From a virus (Duplodnaviria; Caudoviricetes): a stretch of DNA of 64,000 nt. Each line of letters begins with the position of its first letter. Within the stretch, counting starts at the first letter, position 1. Made by a program: the position numbers and the translations under genes. This document shows positions 1,593 through 62,665 of this stretch, in pieces. Where the stretch lies: the IMG/VR virus record IMGVR_UViG_3300014205_000174, one strand, 5' to 3'. The notes below the pieces were generated by a model, which saw nothing but the letters and a program-made list of their open reading frames with translations, searched no databases and was not told the DNA's origin.

Positions 1593-1609
1593 TGCAATTT
1601 GCGTGCCAA
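1593..1609 (-). promoter_or_regulatory. sigma54-type -24/-12 promoter
   Basis: TTGGCACGCAAATTGCA, 20 bp upstream of ATG 1572. Confidence 0.8.
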
Positions 1610-1622
1610 ATTAGTTTTGCAA

Positions 1623-1796
1623 TCAGTTAGTGAGCGAATATTCTACCGTAGCATATGGCCGGTCATTAGGCCCTATAATCAATGACCCAGAGACCATACC
1701 TGCATGTATCTGCTCTACGACAACCTTACATACGTTTTCTAAGGTCAAATCGCTACCAGGCTCAATATTCATTTTTATTGTTAAAATATTTTCCAT
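1623..1796 (-). CDS. small hypothetical protein (57 aa, MENILTIKMN...)
   Basis: Translated manually; lies downstream of the sigma54 motif at 1822. Confidence 0.6.
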   Translation of the reverse strand: MENILTIKMNIEPGSDLTLENVCKVVVEQIHAGMVSGSLIIGPNDRPYATVEYSLTN

Positions 1797-1821
1797 TATC
1801 TGTTATTCTTTCCCTATATAG

Positions 1822-1838
1822 AGCAATTCCCGTGCCAA
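1822..1838 (-). promoter_or_regulatory. sigma54-type promoter (leftward member of a divergent pair)
   Basis: TTGGCACGGGAATTGCT. Confidence 0.8.
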
Positions 1839-1872
1839 ATAAAAAACTAAGTTTTTATTCTCTACCTATAAT

Positions 1873-1889
1873 CTGGCATGCAAATTGCA
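1873..1889 (+). promoter_or_regulatory. sigma54-type promoter (rightward member of a divergent pair)
   Basis: CTGGCATGCAAATTGCA upstream of ATG 1929. Confidence 0.75.
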
Positions 1890-1928
1890 TTACAGCCAAT
1901 ACATTCACAGTTTAGTAAATTTCATTTT

Positions 1929-2222
1929 ATGCCAGCATATGCATATCCAATAATAATTAAGAGGGAGCCGCAATTGGTTAGATTTCAGAAAGAAATAGAA
2001 CTAGGTAGCGGGAGCGATGGCGTGCTGACATTAGCCAAACTCCGTGAGTATGGCGTTACGGAAGAGCACGCATTTTGGACGCGCGAAACAGATGAAGGGC
2101 TGTATAGCACGACTCTTTTGATAATATCAGGGGCGAGGCTGGAAACACCCGAAGAGTTAAAAATAAGGGTTGAGAAAGAAGAGGCCTATATGGCTGAATA
2201 CAACAAGAGAAAGGCTATATAA
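1929..2222 (+). CDS. hypothetical protein
   Basis: ORF; start moved to ATG 1929, downstream of the promoter. Confidence 0.65.
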   Translation: MPAYAYPIIIKREPQLVRFQKEIELGSGSDGVLTLAKLREYGVTEEHAFWTRETDEGLYSTTLLIISGARLETPEELKIRVEKEEAYMAEYNKRKAI

Positions 2223-2242
2223 AAAACGCGATAGTAAATATT

Positions 2243-2259
2243 TTGGCACGCAAATTGCA
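2243..2259 (+). promoter_or_regulatory. sigma54-type promoter
   Basis: TTGGCACGCAAATTGCA upstream of ATG 2285. Confidence 0.8.
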
Positions 2260-2284
2260 TTACAGGAAATATATCTCAAATCAA

Positions 2285-3205
2285 ATGCACGAATTTATTT
2301 TAATACCAAACGATGGTATGCTACCGGAAGTCAACGATATCGTCAAAAGGGTCAAGGCGACTGGTATCAAGCGTTTTGACAAAGAGTCGCCTGTGGACAC
2401 CGTATCTATATCTACATGGAGCGCCGAGGCCGACAGCGGCACCCACTCACCAATGAACCTGCTGATTGTAGATACAAATTCCGATATTCAGGAGGGGGAT
2501 GTTTGTATGGAGGCCAGAACTGGCTATATAGGCCGCGCGTTCTTGCCTAAAAATGACGGTACAGTATCTGACGAAGTGTACAAAACTCTTATAGAGATAC
2601 AGTATTATAGCCATTATACCAGTGCTGGCTTTATCGGCAAGGCCGACCACTTTAAAGTAATTGCATCTTACCAGCCCATTATTGTGGAAGACATGGTAAT
2701 AAACGACCTCCCATCAATCCGGCTATCTGATGTACGCACATGGATAGATGCCGGTTGCCCAAAAGAGGCGTCGCTAGAATGTTTGATTAGCCCGAATCCG
2801 GCAGAGGATTTTAAACTTCAACCGAAAATCACAGACGGTCATGTAACAATTATCTGGCCATTGGAAGTCATGTTTGGTGGGCCATTACCGGATAAGCTAA
2901 AAGACTCCGCCGGTGCACCGCGAGCAAATAACACAGCGCAAGCATTACAAAACCAGGCGCACAACAGAGCAGACAGGACACCACCAAATAAATTATACTG
3001 GCTACCCATACCCGCCGAAAGAAAGAGCAATGAGCTGGAGATAGTATTAGCAAAGGACTCTGCAACAAATGGTACGCTTGTAGGCCGCCTTAAAAAAGAT
3101 GGCAATAGCTGGTATTGCGATAGCGGCAACAGATGGATGCATGCAGATGTATATATTCCAATGGAATACCTCACCTCTTTACCAACAAAAGAAACACAAT
3201 CATAA
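2285..3205 (+). CDS. hypothetical phage protein
   Basis: Long ORF; the tracked TTG start at 2243 is the promoter itself; shares WIxxGCPK motif with the next gene. Confidence 0.75.
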   Translation: MHEFILIPNDGMLPEVNDIVKRVKATGIKRFDKESPVDTVSISTWSAEADSGTHSPMNLLIVDTNSDIQEGDVCMEARTGYIGRAFLPKNDGTVSDEVYKTLIEIQYYSHYTSAGFIGKADHFKVIASYQPIIVEDMVINDLPSIRLSDVRTWIDAGCPKEASLECLISPNPAEDFKLQPKITDGHVTIIWPLEVMFGGPLPDKLKDSAGAPRANNTAQALQNQAHNRADRTPPNKLYWLPIPAERKSNELEIVLAKDSATNGTLVGRLKKDGNSWYCDSGNRWMHADVYIPMEYLTSLPTKETQS

Positions 3206-3206
3206 A

Positions 3207-3680
3207 ATGAACGAACAATACTCAATACAACCCATACCGATTGAACACAAATACTGTGCTATAGGGGAGCGGATATTTGCCTTTGACAAAACACTTGATA
3301 AGTGGGCATATAATTACCTCGACAAATTATCACATACTGAAATACCTCAGCGCTTTCTTGTGACGTCCGATGACCCGTTAGCCTTTGGCGGCTATGTATT
3401 GACGGAAAGCGGCGAGTTACATAAGCGCAGGCAATCTGACACCGATAGATTTGTCTTAGCTGCATACCCTGCATTACCAGGTATGCGCTTAATTAGCGAC
3501 TGGGATGTTAATAAGTGGATAGAGGAGGGCTGTCCCAAGAAAATACTTTTGGAGGTAAAAAGCCTGCATGTCCCAACCGATTCTGATACAGAATACGAAT
3601 CAGCAGACACCATGAAGAAATGGAATCGCATAACGCCAAAACTTAACCAAAATCACATCATCTGTATATGGATGCAATAG
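3207..3680 (+). CDS. hypothetical phage protein
   Basis: Paralogous C-terminal segment (VLAAYP...DVNKWIEEGCPK). Confidence 0.7.
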   Translation: MNEQYSIQPIPIEHKYCAIGERIFAFDKTLDKWAYNYLDKLSHTEIPQRFLVTSDDPLAFGGYVLTESGELHKRRQSDTDRFVLAAYPALPGMRLISDWDVNKWIEEGCPKKILLEVKSLHVPTDSDTEYESADTMKKWNRITPKLNQNHIICIWMQ

Positions 3681-3886
3681 TTGTAACCTACCGTAATAAT
3701 GGCTCCAACAATGGAGCCGGCGACTACCACGCCTGTTTCGAAAACGATACCGCAACGTGGGAATGCGGAAGAACGTCCGACGAGACCATAGGGAAGCTAA
3801 TGCGGTCTACGCAGCAGAGAACCGGTATAAAAATAGTTGACGCAGGCCCATTGAAACGAATCCCGGAAAGTCTTTTTAAAAAATAA
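3668..3886 (+). CDS. hypothetical protein
   Basis: 72-aa ORF in operon. Confidence 0.6.
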   Translation: MDAIVVTYRNNGSNNGAGDYHACFENDTATWECGRTSDETIGKLMRSTQQRTGIKIVDAGPLKRIPESLFKK

Positions 3887-3913
3887 TATGTAAACCAATA
3901 AAAAACACTGAAA

Positions 3914-4240
3914 ATGGACGCTATATCTGAAGCTGAATTGAAAAACCTGAGAACACAAGTGACATTACTTACGGACATAAACAAATGCTACTCGGATGTA
4001 ATGTACTGTATTGTTACGGCAGCATCACAGGCGCTGTCGGGCGAAAACGGCATAAATTATGACGGCTTGTATATTTCTCAGGCAGATGGCGACATTTCTT
4101 TACCGGTGAAAGACTTCAAAAAAATGAAAATATTGCTTGAGATTTTAGCAACCCGTAAAAATCATGATGAAATACCTGGCGCAAAGAGCGAGATTACGAA
4201 AATAAACCTGCTCACAAAGGTACTTGCACAATTACAATAA
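3914..4240 (+). CDS. hypothetical protein
   Basis: 108-aa ORF in operon. Confidence 0.65.
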   Translation: MDAISEAELKNLRTQVTLLTDINKCYSDVMYCIVTAASQALSGENGINYDGLYISQADGDISLPVKDFKKMKILLEILATRKNHDEIPGAKSEITKINLLTKVLAQLQ

Positions 4241-4402
4241 CAAAATAAACACGCACATGAAACAATTCAAATTATTGCACGTCGCCTTATACGCAAAAGG
4301 CCATTATGCACTAAGATACATGGACATGACCGAACTGGGAATTACTGAATTCCCTAAACCATCAATACCAGCATTATTTATACCAAAGCACAACCAATAA
4401 TC

Positions 4403-5614
4403 ATGAACATAACCATATTCGGCAAAGAAATAATAGATGAATCGACCATCATCCAGTTGCAAAACTGCATGGTAGATAATGCAATAGGCGTAATTACCGC
4501 CGACGCCCATAAGGGCTACTCCATGCCGGTTGGCGGGTGCATAGCCTACAAGGATATGATATCCCCGTCAGGCGTCGGATATGATATCGCATGTGGAAAT
4601 ATGGCCGTGCAAACCAATGTACTGGCCTCAGACATTAATGCCAGCCATGTAATGAATGAGATTGCACGACTTATATCTTTTGGTGTGGGCCGCCCAAACA
4701 ATGAGCCGGTAGACCATGAGGTGCTTGATAAGATATCTCAATCGAACTTTGCACCACAGCGCAAAATGGCACAGTTGGCCAAGAGCCAGTTGGGTACCGT
4801 CGGAAGCGGGAATCATTTCGTAGATATTTTCAAAGACGAAAATGGCTTAATCTGGATAGGCGTACACTTCGGCTCCCGTGGCTTCGGCCATAAGACAGCG
4901 TCAGGGTTTATGTCCATGGCCCAGGGGCTTGATTTCGATGAACGTGCCAAAGGCGAGTCCATGGATGCGCCACCTACGCTTTTCGCCACCAATACAGAAC
5001 TGGGGCAAGCTTATATAGACGCTATGAACCTTTGCGGGGAATACGCCTATGCGGGCCGGGAGACCGTTATCAATAAAGTATTGGGCATACTGGGTAATCC
5101 GGAAGTTACTTTCTCCGTACACAACCACCATAATTTCGCATGGAAGGAAAACCACTTTGGTGAAGACTACTGGGTAGTACGAAAAGGATGCACACCTGCC
5201 TTTCCAGGCCAACGAGGTTTTATCGGGGCCAACATGCGCGACATATCCGTTATCGTGGAAGGTGTAGATACGGAACAATCCCGTAATGGCCTGTATTCTA
5301 CCGTACACGGAGCGGGCCGCATTTTATCGCGCACACAGGCTGCCGGAAAGAAGAAGTGGGTCAAGGGGGCGGATGGCAAAAAAAAGCCCGTAACGGTTGG
5401 CAAGGGCGTTATTGACTTTGACCAGGTACGTCACGAACTCACAGAACGCAATGTTGAATTACGCGGAGCTGGTGCCGATGAGGCCCCCGGATGTTACAAG
5501 AACCTGTCAGACGTCTTAGCCTACCAAGGAGACACAATCAAGATACTGCATAAGCTTACGCCAATTGGCGTGGCCATGGCCGGAGGTAATGAATTTGACC
5601 CTTATAAAGACTAA
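4403..5614 (+). CDS. rtcB: RtcB-family RNA ligase
   Basis: Motifs DAHxGYxxPVGG, GVGYDIACG, LGTVGSGNHF, HFGSRGFG, HNHHN, RKG, HGAGR, DEAPxxYK. Confidence 0.95.
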   Translation: MNITIFGKEIIDESTIIQLQNCMVDNAIGVITADAHKGYSMPVGGCIAYKDMISPSGVGYDIACGNMAVQTNVLASDINASHVMNEIARLISFGVGRPNNEPVDHEVLDKISQSNFAPQRKMAQLAKSQLGTVGSGNHFVDIFKDENGLIWIGVHFGSRGFGHKTASGFMSMAQGLDFDERAKGESMDAPPTLFATNTELGQAYIDAMNLCGEYAYAGRETVINKVLGILGNPEVTFSVHNHHNFAWKENHFGEDYWVVRKGCTPAFPGQRGFIGANMRDISVIVEGVDTEQSRNGLYSTVHGAGRILSRTQAAGKKKWVKGADGKKKPVTVGKGVIDFDQVRHELTERNVELRGAGADEAPGCYKNLSDVLAYQGDTIKILHKLTPIGVAMAGGNEFDPYKD

Positions 5615-5617
5615 GAT

Positions 5618-6055
5618 ATGCCTTACAAAGAACCATTAACGATAACAATCAAAGAGCTACATGATAACTTCAGGAAGTTAATTCTTGAGGACAGGGCCAA
5701 AGGATTTAAAATAGGTGGGTTTGGGGAATTATATTGGAATGCATTTCCTGTCAGCAAGCTTAAATATGCTTCATATATCTCCGCTTCTATAAAAAAGAAC
5801 TGTAAAAGCCTTTATTGTTGCAGGTCACGCAGGAATTATAAAGGGAAATATGACCCTATTTTTATAAACAAAAACCAGAAGGTAACAATATACTATTACA
5901 AAAGAGTATCAAAAAAGATAGATTCCTTGTTTGAAAGAAAGATAGCTTTATACGATATGCCGCCTTTTCTGGCTATGGGCGTACTTGCGCTATTAGGTCT
6001 GGGTCATTTTATGAAGTTAAAAAACAAAGCAATCAATGAGCCATCAGGACTTTAA
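5618..6055 (+). CDS. hypothetical protein with C-terminal hydrophobic segment
   Basis: 145-aa ORF. Confidence 0.6.
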   Translation: MPYKEPLTITIKELHDNFRKLILEDRAKGFKIGGFGELYWNAFPVSKLKYASYISASIKKNCKSLYCCRSRRNYKGKYDPIFINKNQKVTIYYYKRVSKKIDSLFERKIALYDMPPFLAMGVLALLGLGHFMKLKNKAINEPSGL

Positions 6056-6416
6056 GTTAGCGCAGGATATACAATCCGCATTCATGTCTATAGGCCACTC
6101 AGCTATTAACGCTGATTTTGCCTGCAAGCTGCTTGCCTATACATATGTAATGGGTGGCGGCAACAAAGCAGTTGTATTAAACCCTGCAATGAATGCTGGC
6201 ATAGGTATGGCCACGCAGCTATTGAACCTGAAAGGTGGCGAAATCCCCAACGCTGATTTATTGCCTAATTTGCAGCAACGAATTGCCGAACTGGAGGAAG
6301 ATATGGAGAATACTGCCTGGCTGCCTGAAATAGGCGAGCGATATCACCTGACTATAAAATACGGCACCTATGTTAAACCAGTAAAGAAACCAAATGACAA
6401 AGAAAACCGAAAATAA
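6036..6416 (+). CDS. hypothetical protein
   Basis: 126-aa ORF. Confidence 0.65.
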   Translation: MSHQDFKLAQDIQSAFMSIGHSAINADFACKLLAYTYVMGGGNKAVVLNPAMNAGIGMATQLLNLKGGEIPNADLLPNLQQRIAELEEDMENTAWLPEIGERYHLTIKYGTYVKPVKKPNDKENRK

Positions 6417-6741
6417 AATTAATGAAATAATTACCCAGGTAACAGGGAAGATTTCCAGGCTCGAATGCGATGGCGCTACCAGAGTGCTTGCCCACCTGCT
6501 GACAAGGAATGAGATACAGCATTCAGTCATGGTTGGCAGTGCCTCTATGGGTGAAATCCACATCCCCGTACACTACTGGATTGTCATCGATGGTAAAATA
6601 TTGGACTTAAAAGCGAAAATGTGGTTTGGAGATAAGGCTACCGAAGGTATCTTTGCAGGCAGCCCGGTACAATATAATGGGCGAGCTATAGAGATGAAGA
6701 CGTCTGAGACTGTTTTTAATATTTTAATGAGAAATAGTTAA
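6394..6741 (+). CDS. possible transglutaminase/papain-like small protein
   Basis: Cys (ECDG), His (HYWI) and Asp (ILD) spaced like a transglutaminase-like triad. Confidence 0.4.
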   Translation: MTKKTENKINEIITQVTGKISRLECDGATRVLAHLLTRNEIQHSVMVGSASMGEIHIPVHYWIVIDGKILDLKAKMWFGDKATEGIFAGSPVQYNGRAIEMKTSETVFNILMRNS

Positions 6742-6752
6742 ACAAAACCAAC

Positions 6753-6941
6753 ATGCAAATAAAATTCAAAGAATACAATGAGGGCAATAAGCCGCAAAGA
6801 GGGGACATCTGCCTGTGCAAATGTCCTGGCTTTTGTGAAGAGGGCGTAATCACAGCCGAGTACACTAGAGATGGCTTTGTGTTTTCCGGACACGGGAACA
6901 TTGACAGGTACGTTACCGCTTACGTTGTTTTAGACCTTTAA
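6753..6941 (+). CDS. hypothetical protein
   Basis: 62-aa ORF in operon. Confidence 0.55.
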   Translation: MQIKFKEYNEGNKPQRGDICLCKCPGFCEEGVITAEYTRDGFVFSGHGNIDRYVTAYVVLDL

Positions 6942-6954
6942 AACCAACAATAAC

Positions 6955-7650
6955 TTGACCGACACAAGCACATACCCTGCGCATAGCGCCTACCAGAACC
7001 TCAGTCCCGATACCATGCCGGGAGAGGTATGGCATCACATGCGCACAGCACGGCTGTACAAGTTGTTTGACAAGCTGAATGTCGAAGTATATATTTCTAG
7101 CTATGGCCGTGTAAAGCAGGATAAAAAAGGGAAAGCCACCATACTGAAGCAAAAAACAAACAGCGACAAGTATTTATATGTCGTAATCGGCGCAACAAAG
7201 ATAGACATCACGCAAATGGTGGCAATAGCCTACGTGGCCAACCCGTTCGACCTTCCGGAAAGAACCCACATCAATGGGGTAAAAACAGACAACCGGAGAG
7301 ACAATATCCAATGGTGCGCCAGTAATTCGGACGACATCCTGCAACCGTACATTACCGGGCAGTATAAGAAGATACCGGTGATATCGAAAGGCACGGCAGT
7401 TGTAAAACTTGGTTATTACCGGGCAGAGCACCATCGCCTTGCTGTATATAAAACTATAAAAGAAGCCGCCGAGGCCAACAGGCTACCTGATAATAAAATA
7501 TCTGGCGCATGTTTGTCCGGGAAAACGCATGAAGGTTTCTACTGGATGCACCTGCGGGATTACCTTACCGGTAATGCGACATTTATCAGGCAGGCAAAGT
7601 ATATTACCAACGAGAACAAGCATATTTGGTTAAAAGTTGCCGGGGAATAG
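6955..7650 (+). CDS. NUMOD4-HNH-NUMOD1 homing endonuclease-like protein
   Basis: GEVW...YISSYGRVK (NUMOD4); HINGVKTDNRRDNIQW (HNH); YKTIKEAAE...ISGAC...GFYW (NUMOD1). Confidence 0.8.
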   Translation: MTDTSTYPAHSAYQNLSPDTMPGEVWHHMRTARLYKLFDKLNVEVYISSYGRVKQDKKGKATILKQKTNSDKYLYVVIGATKIDITQMVAIAYVANPFDLPERTHINGVKTDNRRDNIQWCASNSDDILQPYITGQYKKIPVISKGTAVVKLGYYRAEHHRLAVYKTIKEAAEANRLPDNKISGACLSGKTHEGFYWMHLRDYLTGNATFIRQAKYITNENKHIWLKVAGE

Positions 7651-7653
7651 CCA

Positions 7654-7956
7654 GTGGAAATAGACATAACTCCTCATCAAAGCCTGATAGGCAGAATTGC
7701 GAAACTGACGAAATATGGTGCGTTGTTGAGTAAAGAATATGAGGAATTATTTAAAATTGGAAACCCTGATTCAGATTACCGGGTTTATCAATATTGCCAC
7801 ATGGGCGGCAGATACGAAATGAGCCTTATGTTTATAGATGAACCGTCGTTTAAAATATCTGGCGTTACATTTTTTTGTTTGAAGGAAATTGGAGTGCAGG
7901 CATGCGGAGACTGGCACTGGTACTCGTTAAATCAACTTATTTTTTGTAAAGAATAA
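7654..7956 (+). CDS. hypothetical protein
   Basis: 100-aa ORF. Confidence 0.6.
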   Translation: MEIDITPHQSLIGRIAKLTKYGALLSKEYEELFKIGNPDSDYRVYQYCHMGGRYEMSLMFIDEPSFKISGVTFFCLKEIGVQACGDWHWYSLNQLIFCKE

Positions 7957-7970
7957 ACAATTAAGAAACT

Positions 7971-8462
7971 ATGATACTGGCAAGCGATTTAAGAGTAGGC
8001 AATAAATTCAGGGGCGTGGCGGGCGTACAAACCGTTTTGTCCATTGAGGATAACACCAACAGGAATACCCTCACCTATGTGGATGAAAACCATAAATTAA
8101 TGTACTCCCACCTTATCCTGTGTCTGGAGAACGAAAACCAATATAAGCCCTGCGAGATAGAGGGTATTGAGCTTACTGATGAAATATTGATGCAATATGG
8201 GTTTATAGGCGGTGGGCTGCATTCGTTTACTGGCATGTATCTCGAATGTAGTGACCATCCGAGAATATACAAGCATATTAGTATTAACTACAACAATGAC
8301 AAAAGCTATCCGCAGTATTATGCTTTCATGCGCGAAGGCAGAAAGGATGAGCCAAGAGAAAGCGATGGGGTGGTTTGTCTGCGAAGTGATTTAAGGTACT
8401 TACACCAGCTTCAAAACCTTTTTTACACCATTAATGGGACTGAATTACAAATCAAACTATAA
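7971..8462 (+). CDS. ELRxGN...HQLQNL family phage protein (copy 1 of 5)
   Basis: N-terminal LRVGN, central IELT, C-terminal YLHQLQNLFY..GTEL. Confidence 0.75.
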   Translation: MILASDLRVGNKFRGVAGVQTVLSIEDNTNRNTLTYVDENHKLMYSHLILCLENENQYKPCEIEGIELTDEILMQYGFIGGGLHSFTGMYLECSDHPRIYKHISINYNNDKSYPQYYAFMREGRKDEPRESDGVVCLRSDLRYLHQLQNLFYTINGTELQIKL

Positions 8463-8663
8463 TTATGAAATACATTGCTACAATAATAAGATTGCTTGGC
8501 GCTGTAGCTTCTTTGTTTTTGCTTCATTTGGTATGGCTGAGCAATAAAGAATGCAGAATAACGTACCAGGAAATACACAAGGTCTATAAAGGGCATTATG
8601 ACTCTACGAAAAACACCCCTATGCAAATAAGAAGTGGGTATTTCAAATAACTCAACCTATACC

Positions 8664-9029
8664 ATGCCTGACATCAAACCTGTACTAATTGGAAGCGGGA
8701 AAGGTACTTCGGTGGCCACGCTCGGGCCACAGGCTCCATTTATGGACGCTCATGGTGTACCGAGTGGCATACTGGAACGAGGCATACTACTAATTGAGGG
8801 GCCTGATTTCCCTGATTCGCAAATAATGACAGCAGGCTGCCTGAATTTAATGCTGGGTTCTATTGAGCACATAAACCCATCCAGGGTAGTAATGCCTAAC
8901 CCGCTCCCTGCAATTGAGATACAGGATAGTAAAACAACAAAAGCTCGTTATCCGCCATTCATTGACACCGTGCCTGGCGCATTCAAAAAGAAAAACCAGC
9001 GGCAAAAACGAAAGAGAAACAAATGGTAA
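8664..9029 (+). CDS. hypothetical protein with basic C-terminus
   Basis: ORF in operon. Confidence 0.55.
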   Translation: MPDIKPVLIGSGKGTSVATLGPQAPFMDAHGVPSGILERGILLIEGPDFPDSQIMTAGCLNLMLGSIEHINPSRVVMPNPLPAIEIQDSKTTKARYPPFIDTVPGAFKKKNQRQKRKRNKW

Positions 9030-9904
9030 ACAAAGAGGCATTCAAATATAAAAACCGCATTACTTCCTTATTCGGCATTATCATTCCGCCACGGAAGAAA
9101 AAAGTATACAAGGGATACCTGACCGTGCATTTTGTGCTAGAGAACACCCTGCCCAGTAAAAAGAATCAGTGGATAGCCGGCAACAACTTTAAGTTTCTCA
9201 AGTCAAAGGTAGACAAGACGAAGCCCGTCGAGGAGGTATTACAGCTTATAGAAGATAATTTAAAGGCATACATACGCCCTAACAACAACTACCTTGCTTT
9301 TGTCGCACGGACTATTCCCATCCTGGTAGAACAGGCAAGCTATTGGCACAAGAAATATGCTAAGTACGGATTGTCATTCCCTATAGACGCCTGCACCAGC
9401 TCCATATATTTCTACTGGGGCAACAACATGGGCCGCGATAGTACAAATAAGGCGGAAACAATTCATGACCTTTTAGTGGATTCCGGTATCATAAAAGATG
9501 ATACCTGGCAGAAATTAACACCTATTCACCTTGACGGTGAAGACTACCACGGCACCGTACTAAATAACATCATCTGCATTGACCTGACAGTAAAATTTGA
9601 TAAATCACTGAAGGAACTGGCCGAAATACATAAACACACCCAGCCGCAAGAGACTACCATAACTCCAAAGGTGAAAAAGTCAAAGAGAAAGAAAAAATCA
9701 CAATACGGCATTGAGAATCCAGACCTGATTACACTCGGTTGGTATGGATACACCTATTCTGAGATAGATGACGGGGAAACCGCCATAGATTGCACCCCAG
9801 ACCCTAAAGAATGGACGCTTGCACAGAAAGAAGCATTACGCGCAATGGGGTACAACACGGATATATTAGAAACATTTTACCTAAAAAAGGGTTTGAAGGA
9901 GTAA
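9023..9904 (+). CDS. RusA-like Holliday junction resolvase domain protein
   Basis: LPSKKN and RDSTNKAETIHDLLVDSGIIKDD resemble the RusA D-x-x-N...D...DD motif. Confidence 0.6.
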   Translation: MVNKEAFKYKNRITSLFGIIIPPRKKKVYKGYLTVHFVLENTLPSKKNQWIAGNNFKFLKSKVDKTKPVEEVLQLIEDNLKAYIRPNNNYLAFVARTIPILVEQASYWHKKYAKYGLSFPIDACTSSIYFYWGNNMGRDSTNKAETIHDLLVDSGIIKDDTWQKLTPIHLDGEDYHGTVLNNIICIDLTVKFDKSLKELAEIHKHTQPQETTITPKVKKSKRKKKSQYGIENPDLITLGWYGYTYSEIDDGETAIDCTPDPKEWTLAQKEALRAMGYNTDILETFYLKKGLKE

Positions 9905-9935
9905 AATCAAAAAAAACTTAGTTTACCTTGCTAAT

Positions 9936-9952
9936 TTGGCACGCCATTTGCT
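9936..9952 (+). promoter_or_regulatory. sigma54-type promoter
   Basis: TTGGCACGCCATTTGCT upstream of ATG 9976. Confidence 0.8.
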
Positions 9953-54117: not shown

Positions 54118-54140
54118 GTTTCTTTTCACTTGTATTAGTA

Positions 54141-54169: not shown

Positions 54170-54173
54170 ATTT

Positions 54174-54190: not shown

Positions 54191-54225
54191 TTACATTAGT
54201 AAACCGGGTATAAAACCGGATTCAA

Positions 54226-54756
54226 ATGGGACAGGATAGAAAAGAACAGATATTAAGCAAATATTTAGGGTTAACGGGGTTTGAAATAAGGAAGCTCCCT
54301 TTTGGCGCTGTGCTATTAGGCTACAGGTCGGTAATCAAGCCTTATCCTTTCAAAACATTTTATCCGGTTGAATCCATTATAGACAAGAGGGCGATGTGCA
54401 AACAAGTAGATGCGGCAATGGCTGACTGCATAAAAAAGTTAAAGGCAGACCCTGCGTTAATGAAAAAGCTTGCAAAATAAGTACCCATGTCATTCATAGC
54501 AATATTTTATACGAACGTATCAACACCGGGATTTAAAGTAGGGGATTACCTGAACTACAGTTACTTCAACGCACCAGTCGATGAAAACAACTATCATTGG
54601 CGATATGATTACTATAATGCAACCAATGGCAAGGCTAAAGGAGGCATGCGCGTGCGGTTTATGAAAAACATTCCAAATAACCTTACCCAGGAAAATCTGC
54701 GACTACTTGAAAAGACAAAATACTCTGACTTGAAAAACATAAAAGGCAACTACTGA
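54226..54756 (+). other. two small hypothetical genes (54226-54480, 54487-54756)
   Basis: ORFs. Confidence 0.6.
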
Positions 54757-55113
54757 CCTGTTTGGCGGAAAGAAATTGCTAATATGACGCAAGTTAAGCC
54801 AATCCTGCAATACGGGGTATGCAGTTTAAAAAAAGTTATTCATAAAATTTGGTTTGAAACCGGCAGCATCTTGCAACTAACCGGTTGGAGTTATTTGCGG
54901 AATGTGTAGGTATTATTGCCTCTGCTTATTGTGACTTTGGAAAATGTTTCTTCTTTACAGCCACTTGCGTGTCTTAAAATCTTGAAGTGATTGTCTCCTA
55001 CACAGAATGTATTATTACCTTTTTCTGAATTCTGTATAGCCTCATGTAAGTATATAACATCGTTGTCTATCCCTAATTCATCTATGTCTATGGTATAAAA
55101 GTCGCTGGCTGCT

Positions 55114-56121
55114 ATGTACCGCTATAAGAAACGTGCTATGCTTATGCAGGGACTTATTGACCGCAGTGAAGTATTTAGTCCGCTTCCGGGGAAGATAAAT
55201 ATTTTCAACCTTGAGGAATCTAAAGACATGGTGAACTTCGTTTATGACGATGAGGCCACGCTTCCTTCAGGCCGTTTATCCTTTAAAGACTGGCACAAAA
55301 ATCTTAACAGCACTATTACCCACGGCAGCAGAATACTCATTACAGCAGAATACGCGAACACCTTCAGTGGTAAATATGGAGCTGAAGAGCAGCAGAGTAG
55401 AAGCTTTGGTATTTTAAAGCAAAGCCGAAACCTACCTTACCTTCCCGATAAAGGCATCTATGACGTGGAGCTTTACAAGGAAAAATGTGACGGATGGCTG
55501 TCCGAGCCAAAGTTCCTTGATTATGAGCAGAGGGGACTTATTATCAGTAGAGGAAAATCACGTAAAGGCAATACAGTCAAAAACTACCACCCACCGGCTA
55601 ATAAGCATGAGCAAGATTGGCCAAGGGTAAATGAAATGTACGACGATATTTACTGTGAATATTTAGAACCGCACCTGACTATTATGTATTTACCCACCAG
55701 AGAGACATGGTACAGGTATGATGAGCGAAAAAACAAGGTGCGCTTTGAAATATACCAGGATGATGACTTTGTGCTGCACTGGGACAGACTATCACTGGAG
55801 GACATTGATTTTTACCTGGAGTCCCGCGTTGACCGCCCTAACTACCTGGATATGATGCCCGTACTGGTGAGCACTAAGGCACTGATACATGAAGAACAGG
55901 CGAAAGAGGCCCCGTTCATTCAAATGCTCGTAGGGGGAATAATGAAAGAACAAACTGCGCTCTCCATGGATGAGATTAAGACCAGGGTCATAAGGTGTGT
56001 GCATTGGTGGAAATGGAAGAATATGATAAAACGACCCATCGACAAGGATGATGTACTGGCTGTTCGCATGATACAAAAGCGTGTTTTGTCCAAAAACTAT
56101 GATGAGCTGAAGTGGGAGTGA
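55114..56121 (+). CDS. hypothetical phage protein, possibly N-terminally truncated
   Basis: 335-aa ORF with no obvious promoter or A-rich start; abuts a headless opposite-strand frame. Confidence 0.65.
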   Translation: MYRYKKRAMLMQGLIDRSEVFSPLPGKINIFNLEESKDMVNFVYDDEATLPSGRLSFKDWHKNLNSTITHGSRILITAEYANTFSGKYGAEEQQSRSFGILKQSRNLPYLPDKGIYDVELYKEKCDGWLSEPKFLDYEQRGLIISRGKSRKGNTVKNYHPPANKHEQDWPRVNEMYDDIYCEYLEPHLTIMYLPTRETWYRYDERKNKVRFEIYQDDDFVLHWDRLSLEDIDFYLESRVDRPNYLDMMPVLVSTKALIHEEQAKEAPFIQMLVGGIMKEQTALSMDEIKTRVIRCVHWWKWKNMIKRPIDKDDVLAVRMIQKRVLSKNYDELKWE

Positions 56122-56127
56122 TTTTAT

Positions 56128-56144
56128 TTGGCACGGGATTTGCA
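56128..56144 (+). promoter_or_regulatory. sigma54-type promoter heading the operon that ends in dCas12f-like gene and arrays
   Basis: TTGGCACGGGATTTGCA. Confidence 0.8.
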
Positions 56145-56171
56145 CTACACCCGATATAACCATTCGTTAAG

Positions 56172-57937
56172 ATGAAGAAGAAGATTAGAACTATTGAGCA
56201 CGCCAGCGGCGCTTATAAAACGATGACCCTGCAAATTCTTGGCCTCCGGTTCCCGGAATCTAATTCTGATACCCTTGAAACAATTGGCTGCATAACTTTT
56301 CAGTGTGATGCCGGCGAAGACCGCTGGTACGGTCGCAGCTATAAGGTTGAAACCGACAATCCAGATAATCTTTTGAAAATGGGCAAGTTAGCGACATTCA
56401 TTAAAAACAATGCCGATTCAGAGGCCCAGCCGCAGGAAATAAAGCTGCTTATTGGCGCTGAAGAGCACATATATCATTGCGGCCAGTACATACCGGTATC
56501 CTGCATTGGTATGAGGTATTACAAGGTGATGGATGGGGCCTCTTTTTATTCAAGCATCATTGCACCAAACGATATCATTGCCGAAAAACAACTGGTTGCC
56601 AAAAAGTGGGAGCACATGAAACTGGTTTATACTCATACCATAGCTGCATAAAAATAATAATAATATCTAAAAACATGGCAAAGTCAAACACTCCGAATCC
56701 GGACATAATAATGTTACAAAACAAACTTGCTGATATCCTCCTGCGAGTAGACGAGGGCGACGACCTTGTAATAACCGGTGTGATTGGCGGCTCTATTGCC
56801 ATGAACACAACACATATTCAGAGCGATTGTGTGGCTGAATTTGTAAACAATATCATTACTCTTTACCCGGAAATAAGGGCCTCTATAAAATGAACAACTT
56901 AAAAACAAGCGACCTGAAAACAAATATCATGGTTCGGGATTACCGGCATGACCTCCTAATGTTTGCTGCATATAAGGAATCAGTTCTCGGCCAGTTGAGC
57001 GCGCACATTCTGTCACTCCCGGACAATCCGGAAATTACCAGGGTGGGCAATGGCAACTCTTTTACCATGAGTATTTCCAGCCTTGGGAAATCATTGTCGC
57101 TGTCTGCCGAATCCTATGATTTTAAGTTCCAGTATGGTGTTATTGTTGAAAAAATAAAGAGTGCCGATGATTGCCTGTCTGCTTTGCAGAAAATAGTAGC
57201 CGATGGCTTTATTAAAACCGATAATTACGGCAAGGTTACTTTACATGAGACGGTAGTGGCATACATTAAAGATATCATTGCATAATAATGGAGCGTGACT
57301 ATAAATTCGCTATTGGGCAAACTGTATACACCTATGATGAAGACGAATACCAGTTCATAAAGGGCATAGTAACAGACAAAACCTCTGCTACAGTTTGCAT
57401 ACAATGGGAAAATAGAAAGACCGCGACCGACTACCAGCAATACGATTACGATAAATTAAAAACAGTAAAGCCAAAAAATTATAAGAAATAATGCTAACCG
57501 CAGAAACACTACTTGTACGACCTATTGATGCAGATAAAATAGCTGCATTAATTACAGCTACGCTACCTGCATTACCAGAAGGCGAGACGTACTATGTATC
57601 TCCGTATGTGGCGATAGTACCGGAATATGATAACTGCATATTGACGCCGGACTGCGATTATGACTTTTCAGTAAGCAAGATGTACATAGATGGTGCTTTT
57701 CAGCCTGTTTTTACCGTCAGTGTAAATAAGCGTATCCCTTTTACCACTGAGGACAAATTACCAGGCTACACCGAGAAACATGCATGCCTGTTTAATCTAG
57801 GCATACATACACAGGTTATTCCTTCCCTGCTAAAACAACCGGTAAGTTTACGTGAGTTTATGGGCAGTCAGTACAATTCCAATCCATGCATTAAAAAGAA
57901 CATGAAAGATTGTTTATCCGAAATCAATAATCCATAA
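56172..57937 (+). other. five hypothetical genes upstream of the dCas12f-like gene (56172-56651, 56675-56893, 56890-57285, 57288-57491, 57491-57937)
   Basis: Abutting ORFs; none recognisable as Cas1/2/4 or a sigma factor. Confidence 0.6.
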
Positions 57938-57942
57938 AAATA

Positions 57943-59094
57943 ATGGCTGAAAAACGTATAGTTATTACCCGGAAAGTAAAAATAGACTTTGACGTTGCCG
58001 ACAAGGCCGCATTAAAGGAGTGCTATAATACCGTGTTCTCATGGAACCGGATAGTGCACAAGGCCGCAAACTGGATAATCACGCACCAGTACATGCAGGA
58101 AAACGTAAAGGACTTCTTCTACATTACAGATGCGATAAAGCTGAAGCTGGCCAACATCGACAAAGACGAGGACGGCATACTCACCACCAGCAAGGACAAT
58201 ACCACCTACCAGTTGCTTAGCAAAGCATTTAAGGGGGAATGCCCGATGGGTATGCTATCCGGCCTTAATACGGTTGTGTGCAAGAAATACAAGTCCGATG
58301 CCTTCAAAATAAAGAAAGGCGAAGTCTCCCTTGCCTCTTACCGCAGAAATATCCCTATGCCCATCCGGAGCGCGGATATCTCTTCCTGGGAAAAGCAAAG
58401 TGATGGCAACTATTCATTTTTCGTATACGGCCTGGCTTTCAAAACATGGTTTGGCAAAGACCTGAGCGACAACCAGTCAATATTCGACCGCGCACTGCAA
58501 ACCGGCGAGTATAAGCTTTGTGATTCATCCTTTCAACTGGAAAAGAAAGACGGTAAGTGGAAGATGTTTTTCCTGGCAGTATTCTCCTTTGACAAGGAGC
58601 TTGTTAAGGTGGATGAAAATAAAGCCGCTGTTTGCCGGCTTAGTATACAATACCCGATTGTTATTGCAGAAAAGAAAGACAAGTTCTGGCATATCGGCAC
58701 CGCTGAAGAATATATGCACCGCAGGCTGGCCATACGCGGCGCTTTACACAGGGTTCAAAAAGCCTGTAAGTATAATAAAGGGGGTAAGGGCCGGGACAAA
58801 AAGCTACATGCCATAGAGCGCTTTGAAGACGCTGAAAGCAATTACATTAATAGCCGCATGCACCTTTATAGCCGACAGCTAATTGATTACTGCATAAAGC
58901 GCGGTATCGGCAAGATTGTACTCGACAACTACAAGGAGGTTGTTGACAAGACACATCAGGAGAATGAGGAAAGTAAATTTTTGCTGAGCTCATGGAGTTA
59001 CTTTAATTTAGCTGATAAAATAAAATACAAGGCTGCAAAAGTGGGCATATTGGTGGAGATGGAAGGAGACCCGGAGCCCGAGCCAGTAATTTAG
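57943..59094 (+). CDS. nuclease-dead Cas12f/TnpB-like RNA-guided DNA-binding protein
   Basis: ITRKVKI N-terminus, GEVSLASYR..IPMP, LCDSS.Q; RuvC-I read as AVCRLSIQYP (no Asp), bridge helix KGGKGRDKKL, HLYSRQLID, RuvC-II IVLDN, WSYFNL..KI.YKA..GI.V then stop (no Zn finger or RuvC-III); scaffold and array follow directly. Confidence 0.85.
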   Translation: MAEKRIVITRKVKIDFDVADKAALKECYNTVFSWNRIVHKAANWIITHQYMQENVKDFFYITDAIKLKLANIDKDEDGILTTSKDNTTYQLLSKAFKGECPMGMLSGLNTVVCKKYKSDAFKIKKGEVSLASYRRNIPMPIRSADISSWEKQSDGNYSFFVYGLAFKTWFGKDLSDNQSIFDRALQTGEYKLCDSSFQLEKKDGKWKMFFLAVFSFDKELVKVDENKAAVCRLSIQYPIVIAEKKDKFWHIGTAEEYMHRRLAIRGALHRVQKACKYNKGGKGRDKKLHAIERFEDAESNYINSRMHLYSRQLIDYCIKRGIGKIVLDNYKEVVDKTHQENEESKFLLSSWSYFNLADKIKYKAAKVGILVEMEGDPEPEPVI

Positions 59095-59106
59095 TTTGTT
59101 TTTCAG

Positions 59107-59232
59107 TAAGTTCTTTGACATAATATTTTGTGGGGCGGTTGTACGTCCTTGGCGGGAGGGATTCTTTTCCACTCCCGAATACTTTTTTTATTTTTTAATG
59201 ATATTTGCCTTTGTTTGAAAGGTAGCTACAAC
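59107..59232 (+). ncRNA. tracr/omegaRNA-like scaffold fused to half repeat, copy 1
   Basis: Hairpin GGGGCG-GTTGTA-CGTCCT with loop complementary to repeat end TACAAC; CGGGAG/CTCCCG stem; TGCCTTT anti-repeat pairing with AAAGGTA. Confidence 0.8.
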
Positions 59233-59460
59233 GGTAAGCCGTCGTCTACGGGCACTGTGAGTTGTAAATGACCAGGATTTGAAAGGTAGCTACAACCTTA
59301 GTCGCACAAAAGGGAGCGACCTGCATGGCTGTAAAAGACCGGAATTTGAAAGGTAGTTACAACAACCAGAGGATAACGGTTTCACGATATTGTGAATGAC
59401 CATAATTTGAAAGGTAGTTACAACGAATGGTAACGGTTTTACTTAAACAGAAAGTTGTTT
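59214..59460 (+). CRISPR. mini CRISPR array 1
   Basis: Half repeat ending 59232; 36-nt repeats 59261-59296, 59328-59363, 59389-59424; spacers 28, 31, 25 and ~29 nt; degenerate GTTGTT at 59454. Confidence 0.9.
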
Positions 59461-59461
59461 T

Positions 59462-59677
59462 ATGAATAATGTGCGAAAAATTGGTCGCTGTTTTAATGGG
59501 GCCGAAAGAGACGGAGGAAAGACGGTACATGCTATTGACTCCGAAAAGCCAAATGGAGACTGGTTTGGGAAGGCCGTTTGCGGAACAGAACCAGGGTATC
59601 GGGGAAACGGCTGGGCGAAAACAGATAAACCAGTAAGTTGTACACGGTGTATAAATAAAATGGCGAAACGCACGTAG
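59462..59677 (+). CDS. small Cys/His-containing hypothetical protein between cassettes 1 and 2
   Basis: 71 aa; VHA...AVCG...VSCTRC. Confidence 0.65.
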   Translation: MNNVRKIGRCFNGAERDGGKTVHAIDSEKPNGDWFGKAVCGTEPGYRGNGWAKTDKPVSCTRCINKMAKRT

Positions 59678-59693
59678 AGCGTGTGTGGCTTTT

Positions 59694-59818
59694 TAAGTTC
59701 TTTGACATAATATTTTGTGGGGCGGTTGTACGTCCTTGGCGGGAGGGATTCTTTTCCACTCCCGAATACTTTTTTATTTTTTAAGGTATTTGCCTTTGTT
59801 TTGAAAGGTAGTTACAAC
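59694..59818 (+). ncRNA. tracr/omegaRNA-like scaffold, copy 2
   Basis: Nearly identical to copy 1. Confidence 0.8.
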
Positions 59819-60092
59819 GATTAATAGTTCAAGTTCACTGATTTTTAGTTGTATAAGACCATAATTTGAAGGGTAGTTACAACACATAAGCTACTACAAG
59901 AAGCATTTTCACTGTTGTGAAAGACCCGAATTTAAAAGGTAGTTACAACGTACATTCATTGGGCTAAATTTTGATTTGGCTGTAAAAGACCCAAATTCAA
60001 AAAGTAGCTACAACTAAAGCAGTGATATAAAACATCATGGGCCTGTGTTCACGTTACGTGAACGACCATTAAACCAGTTTAAGTAGCTACAC
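59800..60092 (+). CRISPR. mini CRISPR array 2
   Basis: Half repeat ending 59818; 36-nt repeats 59848-59883, 59914-59949, 59979-60014; spacers 29, 30, 29 nt; degenerate end AAGTAGCTACAC 60081-60092. Confidence 0.9.
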
Positions 60093-60111
60093 CCAAAAAC
60101 AATAAGAACGA

Positions 60112-60642
60112 ATGAGAATAATATTCCTTGACATAGACGGAGTCTTAAACAGCCAGCTTTTTTACACTGAAAGAAGTCAATGCCAAAGGGCCAGTGATGG
60201 CGCAGGAGCCGACATTGACGAGCGGTGCGTTAATTACCTAAACAGCCTGATTGCAGAAACCGGAGCAAAGGTTGTGATAAGCTCCACCTGGCGGTCAGAT
60301 GGCCTTGAATATTGCAAGACGGCATTGGAGGCAAAGGGCTTTGTTGGCGAGATAATCGATGTCACTCCTCACTTACGCCACGAAGGCTGTCTCAGAGGCA
60401 ATGAAATCTACCACTGGATACAGAAAAACAGCGAGATGCTATGCGGGAGCACAAATGGCAGCGACTTCAAGGAATATGTAATATTTGACGATGATAGCGA
60501 TATGCTGTACTGGCAACGCAACAACTACATCCAGATTGACGCCTATTGCGGACTCACTCCGAATCAATGCTACAGGGCCAAATTTATTCTCTGCCGTGAT
60601 ATGACTTTCGGAGACAGTTTTGGAAATAATATAAAAAAGTAA
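60112..60642 (+). CDS. HAD-domain protein (Swiss Army Knife RNA repair-like)
   Basis: IFLDIDGVLN, VVISSTWR, RG.EI..W, YVIFDDD.DM, GLT. Confidence 0.88.
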   Translation: MRIIFLDIDGVLNSQLFYTERSQCQRASDGAGADIDERCVNYLNSLIAETGAKVVISSTWRSDGLEYCKTALEAKGFVGEIIDVTPHLRHEGCLRGNEIYHWIQKNSEMLCGSTNGSDFKEYVIFDDDSDMLYWQRNNYIQIDAYCGLTPNQCYRAKFILCRDMTFGDSFGNNIKK

Positions 60643-60750
60643 CTACAACACTATAAATTAAGGTCAGGTGGGGCAAAAAACTAAGTTTTGGCCCAGAAAT
60701 ATGTTTTATTTGATATTATCACATATCTTTGGCCCTTAATCCACCCCTTC

Positions 60751-61329
60751 ATGGCTTCTGATTTTAGAAAACAGACAAGTTATCCGCGCGGGATTCGAAA
60801 TAATAATCCTGGTAATCTGGTAGAGGTATCATCCGGATGGCTGGGCCAGTCAGGCAGCGATGGCAGATTTGCCGTATTTGAGAGCATGCCATGGGGTATC
60901 CGGGCTTTTTTAATGAATTACTACTCTTCTATAGAGAGGCATAAGATTTCCACCCTTACTGATTACATACACCGGTATGCACCGCCATTCGAAAATGACA
61001 CCACCAAGTATATTAATACCGTTGCGGCCCGTGCAGGCATTGACGCAAACGGGCCTATACCTACAGACCGGGATACGGTAACCAAAATCATGCGGGGCCA
61101 GTTCGAAGTAGAATTAGGCAAGAAGTATGCCGACATGATTACGGATGATGATATAAATGGCGGCTTTGAGCTCCTGAGCAGCCCGCTGAAGACCTTTTTT
61201 AATTCCATAACAATTTTCTATCACAGCAACCCAGCCGCAACATACGGCATAGCAACTGCCTTGGCCATTGGCGCAAGCATGCTGGTCTTTGGTGGCATAA
61301 AGCTTATCCGCTCCGCCAGGAAGAAGTAA
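60751..61329 (+). CDS. RNNNPGN-family lysozyme-like/virion protein with C-terminal TM
   Basis: RGIRNNNPGNL, RFAVF...GIRA, RYAPP.ENDT..Y; TATCTTTG promoter at 60724. Confidence 0.75.
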   Translation: MASDFRKQTSYPRGIRNNNPGNLVEVSSGWLGQSGSDGRFAVFESMPWGIRAFLMNYYSSIERHKISTLTDYIHRYAPPFENDTTKYINTVAARAGIDANGPIPTDRDTVTKIMRGQFEVELGKKYADMITDDDINGGFELLSSPLKTFFNSITIFYHSNPAATYGIATALAIGASMLVFGGIKLIRSARKK

Positions 61330-61344
61330 TAACGCCCATAAAGT

Positions 61345-61361
61345 TTGGCACACTATTTGCG
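61345..61361 (+). promoter_or_regulatory. sigma54-type promoter
   Basis: TTGGCACACTATTTGCG. Confidence 0.7.
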
Positions 61362-61385
61362 CTATGATGGGAAAATATATTCAGG

Positions 61386-62256
61386 ATGTTGATTTCAGAT
61401 TTATCAAAGGAAAATTATATGGTTGTCTGCGAAGGGGCGGCAGAATTATTAAATGTAGCACAAGCCCTAGCCAGGACGGACGCAAAATTTTATGCAGCCG
61501 TAATTAACCACCATGAGTCCTTTATTGAAGCGCCGGACTGTATTCGCCAGACTGTGCTGGCCTCCGAATTGGATACTATCGATACCGAATCTGACATTGA
61601 CCTGGAGACACACCCGTATCTCCAGTACCTGCTCAATGAAATCAGCGCCTATGAGACGAAGTACAATGCAACGAAAGTAAAGGAGCTGGAAGCCACTACA
61701 GAGCAATTGAAAGATTACTATTCCAGTTCCGCATCTACCTTATGGGAAAGAAAATGCGATACGGAGCGTCATTACAGGAAAGCCGCACCCTACTTCCCGG
61801 ACATTGTAAATAACAATGTGGTCTCATCGCCAAGTGCTGCCGGAATGAGAAAAATGGCCGCCGGTTTAGCTAATTAACTATTTTTGTTTTTACTTAAAGC
61901 AATTCATGACAGATAATTTATATTTCGGGAAGGATACTACTGAGGAGCGATTAAATAATGAGCGCAATCAGCGTTCTTTTATAAAAGAACTAAAACAGGC
62001 ATTGCCGGACATCCTCATGTACGACGCCTACAGCCCGACATTAGGCTTCCGGATAAGTGTATTTGTTGATGATTTACAAAAATTCAACTACTGTTCATGG
62101 CTGCTTTCTACCGACTGGTATTCGCATTCAGAATATCTTACCAGTCTACAGAATGATGATGCCGGCCAAGGTGAATTAAAGTCGTTTCTCGAATTTTCGA
62201 TGCTGCAATACCCGCAAGCTTACGGCGAGGAGCGCCTGAAGAAACTACCGATATAA
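61386..62256 (+). other. two hypothetical genes (61386-61877, 61906-62256)
   Basis: ORFs. Confidence 0.6.
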
Positions 62257-62306
62257 CCGCTATATTTGCTTTCTTCCATTTTAAAACCAAATAAAAAAAA
62301 CAACCA

Positions 62307-62645
62307 ATGAAAAAAACATTATTAGCAGTCGCTTTATTAGCATTGGCGTCCACGACGTCTACATTTGCCCAGTCGAATACCCCGGCATCCGACACTACGA
62401 AAAACGCTGCTTCGGTTACGGGCCAGCCGCAGCAGCCAGAGAGAAAATACGTCATCTACCTTACCGCACAGCAAATCTCCTTACTGGGCCAGATTATGTC
62501 ATCGTCCACCGCGCCGTATGTTAATGTAATCGCCCTGGAGAAGATACTTAACGAGCAACTGGGGCCGCAATCAACCCCCGATAATACCAACGCCAACGCA
62601 ACCCCGGTAAAAACGCCGCCAGCGCCGCCTGCTAAGAAGAAATAA
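62307..62645 (+). CDS. secreted low-complexity protein
   Basis: Signal peptide MKKTLLAVALLALA...FAQ; TATATTTG promoter at 62261. Confidence 0.7.
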   Translation: MKKTLLAVALLALASTTSTFAQSNTPASDTTKNAASVTGQPQQPERKYVIYLTAQQISLLGQIMSSSTAPYVNVIALEKILNEQLGPQSTPDNTNANATPVKTPPAPPAKKK

Positions 62646-62648
62646 AGT

Positions 62649-62665
62649 TTGGCACGGGAATTGCT
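62649..62665 (+). promoter_or_regulatory. sigma54-type promoter
   Basis: TTGGCACGGGAATTGCT. Confidence 0.8.

Follow-up and report, generated by a model that had tools for sequence, protein, structure and literature searches.

Sigma-54-type promoter motifs along a 211-kb virus-like contig and the search for what opens them

Introduction

Can a virus place most of its transcription units behind promoters of the sigma-54 (-24/-12) type and, if it does, what opens them? The question is raised by a 64-kb stretch of DNA (the window), which corresponds to bases 32001-96000 of the 211,455-bp metagenomic contig k141_2451761 (ENA ERZ27247358) and in which an earlier note had listed 17 sites resembling the consensus of the sigma factor RpoN (sigma-54). 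The sigma-54 holoenzyme needs an AAA+ protein of the bacterial enhancer-binding type (bEBP), as its closed complexes cannot open otherwise. The portion of the contig analyzed herein covers 131.6 kb (record positions 13165-144754, 62% of the contig).

The sites appear to be sigma-54-type promoters, a reading which is well supported because the match to the consensus, the promoter-like placement and the conservation in related viruses all point to it. We give a probability of about 60% to the fuller proposal that they are working promoters of the sigma-54 class and the main promoter type of this virus-like element, read by the RNA polymerase containing the host RpoN and opened by a factor which has no promoter-specific site.

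Motif and Consensus

The window was searched for YGGCACG-N4-TTGC with at most one mismatch, using 100 dinucleotide-preserving shuffles as the null model. Eighteen matches were found in 64 kb against 1.56 +/- 1.36 expected; the shuffle maximum was 7, so that a count of 18 was reached in 0 of 100 shuffles. All 17 sites of its list are present, each starting one base further to the right. The exact pattern is found in 12 of the 18 matches, and the promoter-placed sites of the window comprise 12 exact and five one-mismatch sequences. They are listed below as predicted sigma-54-type promoters or sites, followed by the IS1-family insertion sequence (IS) that lies among them; ORF denotes an open reading frame.

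1594-1608 (-), promoter, exact (TGGCACGCAAATTGC), 21 nt before the ATG of ORF 991-1572(-)
1823-1837 (-), promoter, exact, left member of a divergent pair, with a small ORF 26 nt downstream and the 1874(+) site 36 bp away
1874-1888 (+), promoter, TGGCATG variant, right member of that pair, 40 nt upstream of an ATG in ORF 1878-2222
2244-2258 (+), promoter, exact, heading the plus-strand block with RtcB (4403-5614), 26 nt before the ATG of a 306-aa ORF
9937-9951 (+), promoter, exact, 28 nt before the ATG of a 42-aa ORF, with the palindrome AAACTTAGTTT 13 nt upstream
11435-11449 (+), promoter, sub-variant atcCGGCACGATTGTTGC, divergent from the TnpB gene 10130-11440(-) and heading the plus-strand block 11503-15099
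36874-36888 (-), promoter, sub-variant atcCGGCACGATTATTGC, 24 nt upstream of the TTG codon that starts the 95-aa ORF 36562-36849 (weak HTH_8 match, E 0.0011, below the cut-off)
43559-43573 (-), promoter, sub-variant atcTGGCACGATTGTTGC, 15 nt before ORF 43247-43543 (Bac_DnaA_C helix-turn-helix, E 1e-7)
46037-46051 (-), weaker site, TGGCAGG, left half of the IS-split divergent pair; the next gene, 45486-45866(-), is about 170 nt off, with a hairpin (45979-46010) between
48153-48167 (+), site, TTGA variant, inside the IS, ahead of the transposase gene 48198-49082
50016-50030 (+), promoter, TTGA variant, right half of the IS-split pair, with ATG codons 3 nt and, in frame, 12 nt past the motif (ORF 50034-50477)
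50484-50498 (+), promoter, exact, 7 nt after the preceding stop and 27 nt before ORF 50526-50762
52964-52978 (+), promoter, exact, ahead of the DUF932-like gene 53014-54117
54175-54189 (+), promoter, exact, directly behind a strong intrinsic terminator (54140-54168) and 36 nt before ORF 54226-54480
56129-56143 (+), promoter, exact, heading the run 56172-59094, which ends in a degenerate TnpB-like gene
61346-61360 (+), promoter, TGGCACA variant, 25 nt before ORF 61386-61877
62650-62664 (+), promoter, exact, 13 nt before ORF 62678-63061
37610-37624 (+), one-mismatch match (TGGCAAG), probably due to chance, antisense inside ORF 37122-37757(-)
46063-49992 (no strand assigned), IS1-family IS with cargo (DDE_Tnp_IS1), between two back-to-back promoters

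Across the 131.6 kb, strict-pattern sites number 26, or 0.2 per kb; sites at 70174, 76947, 77950, 93810 and 96215, elsewhere on the contig, were also recovered. The position matrix built from these 26 sites has an A/T-rich 5' flank at -4 to -1, T or C just before TGG in 24 sites, G after CAC in 22 and W after TTGC in 20, followed by a TA three to four bases after TTGC (T at +18 in 19 sites, A at +19 in 18). The GG and GC dinucleotides of TGGCAC-N5-TTGC lie exactly 10 nt apart, which is the spacing of the sigma-54 class. The extended consensus which Barrios et al. reportedly gave in 1999, mrNrYTGGCACG-N4-TTGCWNNw, is matched by the matrix position by position, including the Y before TGG, the G after CAC, the W after TTGC and the w three bases on; the motif agrees with the RpoN consensus at every informative position. 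In addition, no 7-mers of the contig are more strongly enriched in intergenic DNA than GGCACGC and TGGCACG. The motif does not belong to the Bacteroidota sigma-A class (-33 TTTG / -7 TAnnTTTG), as its elements are 10 nt apart and not about 19-21 nt; TAnnTTTG promoters occur separately on the contig, for example before the tRNA cluster.

A sub-variant, atcYGGCACGATTRTTGC, is found at 11435, 36874 and 43559, each time ahead of a small gene. The three genes are not paralogues of one another, and two of them have helix-turn-helix products (one below the cut-off), which hints at a separately controlled regulatory subset.

Placement Relative to Genes

The earlier note had described the sites as intergenic, co-oriented with the next gene and close to it, and this description is confirmed: an ATG-initiated, co-oriented ORF of at least 45 aa lies within 60 nt downstream of 21 of the 26 strict-pattern sites, compared with 25.5% of random positions in the same 131.6 kb. 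The distance from motif to ATG is usually 3-53 nt. The sites thus lie upstream of genes, in the same orientation, and leave room for a transcription start about 12 nt past the GC, which at 50016 and 52964 requires the use of a downstream in-frame ATG. Many motifs begin less than 10 nt after the preceding stop codon (e.g., 50484).

Every co-oriented gene block of the window is headed by a motif. This holds for the RtcB block (2244), the small-gene block (11435) and the long minus-strand block with glycan genes (headed by 46037, 43559 and 36874), while seven successive units, each with its own motif, extend from 50016 to 62650. The TnpB-like gene at 57943-59094, termed dCas12f in the earlier note, indeed lies in the co-oriented run behind 56129. 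As for the proposal that sigma-54 transcribes one class of the genes, promoters of this type are supported by the sequence, but they do not mark a minor class, since they head essentially every unit of the window. Competing promoter motifs are absent from most motif-bearing spacers, and sigma-70 patterns are unenriched (47 found against 52.6 expected) when scored by the E. coli consensus.

Divergent pairs were said to mark both divergent strand switches. This is correct for 1823(-)/1874(+) and, once the IS is removed in silico, for 46037(-)/50016(+), which then lie 26 bp apart; a third junction (11440/11435) has a single motif. The IS is bounded by 39-nt terminal inverted repeats that are 97% complementary and by an 8-bp target duplication (TACATTCC), and its cargo comprises several passenger ORFs and a tRNA-Pro(CGG) at 47970-48042. 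In its closest copies, on Flavipsychrobacter/Bacteroidetes contigs from metagenome-assembled genomes (MAGs; L110, L111, L113), the position of the 48153 site is occupied by TTGGCACG-N4-TTGG.

Conservation in Related Viruses and Occurrence in Others

Three relatives (48-55% protein identity), identified through the DUF932-like protein (53-55% identity), keep the motif in promoter-like positions despite their different G+C content:

L089 (JGI, 53-kb contig): 4 sites in 21 kb
L090 (JGI): 2 sites in 3 kb, one of which (1574) directly precedes the orthologous gene 1635-2723, as at 52964
L321 (ENA, 160-kb contig, 36% G+C): 3 sites in 21 kb, all with an ATG 24-28 nt downstream

As negative controls, 80 IMG/VR loci were selected by more distant DUF932-like proteins (at most 42% identity) and 80 by DnaB (34-60%). 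The motif is not enriched in either set; the 80 DnaB-related loci contain 7 strict-pattern matches in 1.11 Mb, that is, 0.006 per kb compared with 0.2 per kb here.

An exact-pattern scan of IMG/VR nevertheless revealed other, unrelated viral contigs with arrays of the extended motif. One of them, a 74.7-kb viral contig with the same promoter type (G006), encodes the AAA+ domain of a bEBP (PF00158, E 6e-63) in a 350-aa ORF. In the complete 50.5-kb genome of the IMG/VR virus G005, five co-oriented sites of the extended form are present, but PF00158 and PF04552 are both lacking; at least one virus thus has such promoters without a recognizable factor of its own. The RpoN DNA-binding domain was found in none of five other viral records with these motifs. 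Two further unrelated viral contigs (L205 and L208; IMG/VR 3300043446_002903 and 3300046804_002424) carry 9-11 sigma-54-type motifs in 13 kb, many of them as divergent pairs, and in the one of these records that is 44% complete no bEBP was found. The earlier remark that sigma-54 use is not a common phage strategy is therefore only partly upheld: the accessible part of the literature gives a single sigma-54-like promoter, in phage YuA (PMC10914365), whereas the IMG/VR pattern search shows similar arrays on other viral contigs.

Comparison with Known Systems

Bacterial RpoN promoters that depend on proteins of the NtrC/PspF family have the same TGGCACG-N4-TTGCW, with GG and GC 10 nt apart, in the same position relative to genes. 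Unlike these, the sites described here belong to a virus, have a density of about 0.2 per kb and stand at the head of most units, with no upstream enhancer or linked bEBP in the portion read. Cellular sigma-54 regulons comprise only a few sites per Mb, and every site is under the control of a particular activator.

Among phages, the closest parallel is the sigma-54-like promoter P015 of the Pseudomonas phage YuA (Ceyssens et al. 2008, as cited in PMC10914365), which has experimental support from a promoter trap and from start-site data. It shares with the present sites that it is a phage promoter of the sigma-54 type; it differs in being the only one of its type in YuA, where the other promoters are sigma-70-type or phage-specific, whereas here the type would be the dominant class across a 211-kb genome. 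In the literature searched, YuA was the only phage case found and no report of phage-wide use of sigma-54 promoters was encountered.

A looser parallel is offered by late transcription in phage T4 (gp55/gp33/gp45; PMC2988020), in which a simple promoter class is likewise used virus-wide and the activator has no promoter-specific binding site. The sigma family and the motif (TATAAATA) are different there, and the comparison, including the clamp-linked system, is an analogy only.

Of interest here is the scale, with sigma-54-type elements as the dominant class of a 211-kb virus, together with the conservation in the lineage and the lack of a recognizable activator or enhancer in the portion read. 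To our knowledge, sigma-54 transcription is unique among bacterial systems in staying completely silent unless an ATPase opens the complex, and it would therefore be a natural timing switch for a virus. The sites raise the testable questions of a genome-wide sigma-54 drive without enhancers and of the dependence of Bacteroidota phages on host rpoN, a possible determinant of resistance or host range. The motif also provides a handle for annotating the transcription units of an uncultured lineage.

Search for RpoN, an Activator and an Enhancer

The earlier note had reasoned that sigma-54 use implies a phage-encoded activator or a bypass mechanism. The search for it combined Pfam on window ORFs of at least 60 aa, precomputed Pfam results on the flanks, six-frame patterns for GAFTGA and the RpoN box, and tblastn against the contig with a host RpoN, a host bEBP and the viral bEBP of G006 as queries. 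In the 131.6 kb, no credible RpoN match was obtained by Pfam, RpoN box or tblastn, and no bEBP (PF00158, GAFTGA) was found; the 45 kb of the three relatives likewise yielded neither. The 210 nt upstream of the sites share no 7- to 9-mer beyond the random maximum, and thus no common enhancer is found at the usual distance of about 80-150 bp. The expectation of a phage-encoded factor is not borne out in this portion of the contig.

Several candidates were considered and set aside. A tblastn match of host RpoN with an E value of 0.016 was rejected as RpoN, its frame being broken by stops, and a second weak match falls in a 218-aa ORF without a Pfam family and is limited to a local likeness of 56 aa. 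The 95-aa ORF 36562-36849 was rejected as the DNA-binding module of a split bEBP, the HTH_8 match being below the cut-off. The lineage also has a conserved AAA_5 (MoxR-like) ATPase (L089 16761-18002, L321 15275-17815), which is only a low-odds candidate for a non-canonical activator. It does not qualify as a bEBP, having no GAFTGA loop: AAA_5 is its best family (E 1.8e-14), PF00158 scores 19.5 bits against a cut-off of 20.2, and the loop reads GYQEGELIKA where a bEBP has GHEKGAFTGA. Its gene lies behind one for a Strawberry-notch-type helicase in L089, where it has no intein; in the L321 copy, an intein interrupts the Walker A motif.

Several points weigh against the proposal that host RpoN reads these sites as working promoters. 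No bEBP was detected in the 131.6 kb, so that the canonical activator is missing from the portion read, and the upstream regions have no enhancer in common. Moreover, genomes of the presumed host lineage (4-5 Mb) contain no more than 4-7 exact sites, and the sigma-54 pool of the host may therefore be modest in relation to a virus that carries about 0.2 per kb.

Proposed Mechanism and Alternatives

In the mechanism that we favor, the RNA polymerase containing host RpoN would bind TGGCACG-N4-TTGCW, with a predicted transcription start about 12 nt after the GC. This would give leaders of roughly 1-45 nt on mRNAs without a Shine-Dalgarno sequence, some of them predicted to be 1-3 nt long (62650, 43559). 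At 62650, a leader of 1-2 nt is predicted since only 13 nt separate the motif from ORF 62678-63061, and at 50016 the leader would be very short or absent because ATG codons lie only 3 and 12 nt past the motif. A second, smaller set of units, such as the tRNA cluster, would use Bacteroidota sigma-A promoters (TTG ... TAnnTTTG). Activation is most likely due to a factor without a promoter-specific site, because an activator is obligatory, the spacers are too short for enhancers and no upstream sequence is shared. Such a factor may be a virus protein, either one that cannot be recognized as a bEBP or one whose gene lies in the remaining 38% of the contig, or it may be a host bEBP acting from solution. 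The bEBPs of Helicobacter pylori (FlgR) and Chlamydia (CtcC) lack a DNA-binding domain and act from solution. A protein of this kind would explain many promoters without enhancer sites; none was found in the 131.6 kb, while G006 encodes its 350-aa bEBP. We infer the identity of the host, the use of its RpoN, the position of the start sites and the nature of the activator.

A bolder version, which we put forward tentatively and regard as doubtful, is that giant viruses of the Bacteroidota form a lineage which transcribes most of its genome from sigma-54 promoters with neither its own RpoN nor a recognizable bEBP. It would do so through a new kind of factor, which opens sigma-54 closed complexes in place of a GAFTGA AAA+ activator, or through a captured host bEBP, switched on by infection and acting from solution on dozens of enhancer-less promoters.

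The alternative that survives best, unlikely as it seems, is a virus-specific sigma-54 system in which an RpoN paralogue, a stripped-down bEBP or both are encoded at record positions 1-13164 or 144755-211455. These flanks make up the 38% of the contig outside the portion searched, and the true bEBP AAA+ domain of G006, which has the same promoter type, also speaks for this reading. Against it, neither the 131.6 kb nor the 45 kb of L089, L090 and L321 has yielded such a gene, and five other motif-bearing viral records lack an RpoN DNA-binding domain.

Somewhat less probable again is a virus factor unrelated to sigma-54, such as a new sigma factor, RNA polymerase or transcription activator, in which case the resemblance to the RpoN consensus would have arisen by convergence. 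No activator was found in the 131.6 kb, most proteins here are without a family assignment, and an additional semi-conserved TAYA is seen 3-6 nt after TTGC both here and in G005. Convergence, on the other hand, would have to reproduce all 11 defining bases at exact spacing as well as the flanking Y, W and w, and unrelated viral contigs carry the motif too, among them one with a genuine bEBP. Neither an RNA polymerase nor a sigma domain was seen in the 131.6 kb.

Finally, it is very improbable that the sites bind sigma-54 holoenzyme or another protein without firing, serving between units as roadblocks or insulators, or titrating host sigma-54 as a sink. In favor of this reading, the holoenzyme forms stable silent closed complexes, many E. 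coli sites are non-productive (PMC4591121), and the exact sites of the window alone outnumber those of an entire presumed-host genome. The strict co-orientation, the short and regular distance to the start codon, the back-to-back pairs at divergent junctions and the lack of a competing promoter motif in most spacers all speak for firing.

Host of the Virus

A host from the Bacteroidota, of the family Chitinophagaceae, is probable from several features of the sequence. The tRNA cluster left of the window is preceded by a promoter of the Bacteroidota sigma-A type (TTG ... TACTTTTG), a Shine-Dalgarno-like sequence is present at only 10 of 240 genes, and the IS transposase is 77-78% identical to copies in MAGs of Flavipsychrobacter (Chitinophagaceae). 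These MAGs have two to three rpoN genes with the RRTVAKYR box and five to six strong bEBP matches, and both extracted bEBPs contain GAFTGA. Exact TGGCACG-N4-TTGC occurs only 4-7 times per 4-5 Mb genome, which is fewer than in the 64-kb window.

In the presumed-host MAGs, a second rpoN lies next to a bEBP gene (G001:C6 224119-225607, G002:C13 78467-79985, G003:C1 88797-90318 and G003:C62 19241-20715), one MAG thus holding two such cassettes. The possibility that the cassettes are misbinned viral DNA was rejected, given that they carry no array of the motif and do not resemble any proteins of the virus. The region before the tRNA genes (L005 3280-3520, about 1.7-1.9 kb left of the window) shows a sigma-A-type promoter, a short leader ORF with TTC TGT TGG TTT and a terminator, followed by tRNA-Phe, tRNA-Trp and tRNA-Cys.

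Gene Content and Other Features of the Contig

No structural genes were seen in the portion read, and the virus-like label rests on the other gene content: RtcB, a DUF5131 protein with an intein, HNH and GIY-YIG endonucleases, VRR-NUC, a dCMP deaminase, a lysozyme-like domain and TnpB copies. Many small ORFs without a family, a glycan-synthesis cluster, DnaB, YopX and the tRNA cluster are also present. Near-identical pieces of the contig occur in SRR6484325; no close relative was found by megablast against 50,697 phage records, and a scan of IMG/VR for exact peptides of the DUF932-like protein returned no match.

The glycan-synthesis cluster, 15106-33601(-), encodes a GDP-mannose 4,6-dehydratase, three members of the epimerase/dehydratase family, glycosyltransferases of families 2, 6, 11 and 25, RgpF, a PIG-L deacetylase, a hexapeptide acyltransferase and methyltransferases. 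At 38586-40436(-), the DUF5131 (phage Gp37/Gp68-like) protein is split by its intein, which has a LAGLIDADG-type homing endonuclease. TnpB/Cas12f-like genes lie at 10130-11440(-), 57943-59094(+), L005 2262-3104 and L109 5697-6896; two copies are full length (436 and 399 aa, with OrfB_IS605 and TNB), one of 280 aa has both domains, and the fourth is degenerate (383 aa, weak PHROG matches only).

The palindrome AAACTWAGTTT was found 4 times against 0.14 expected (window positions 1844, 9914, 54111 and 60678, mostly overlapping gene ends). As a general enhancer it was rejected, since it adjoins only three to four promoters and lies mostly at gene ends. A further copy is located about 16.4 kb past the end of the window (window-equivalent position 80392), and two copies have a longer block in common, AGGTGGGG(C/T)AAAAAACTAAGTTTT.

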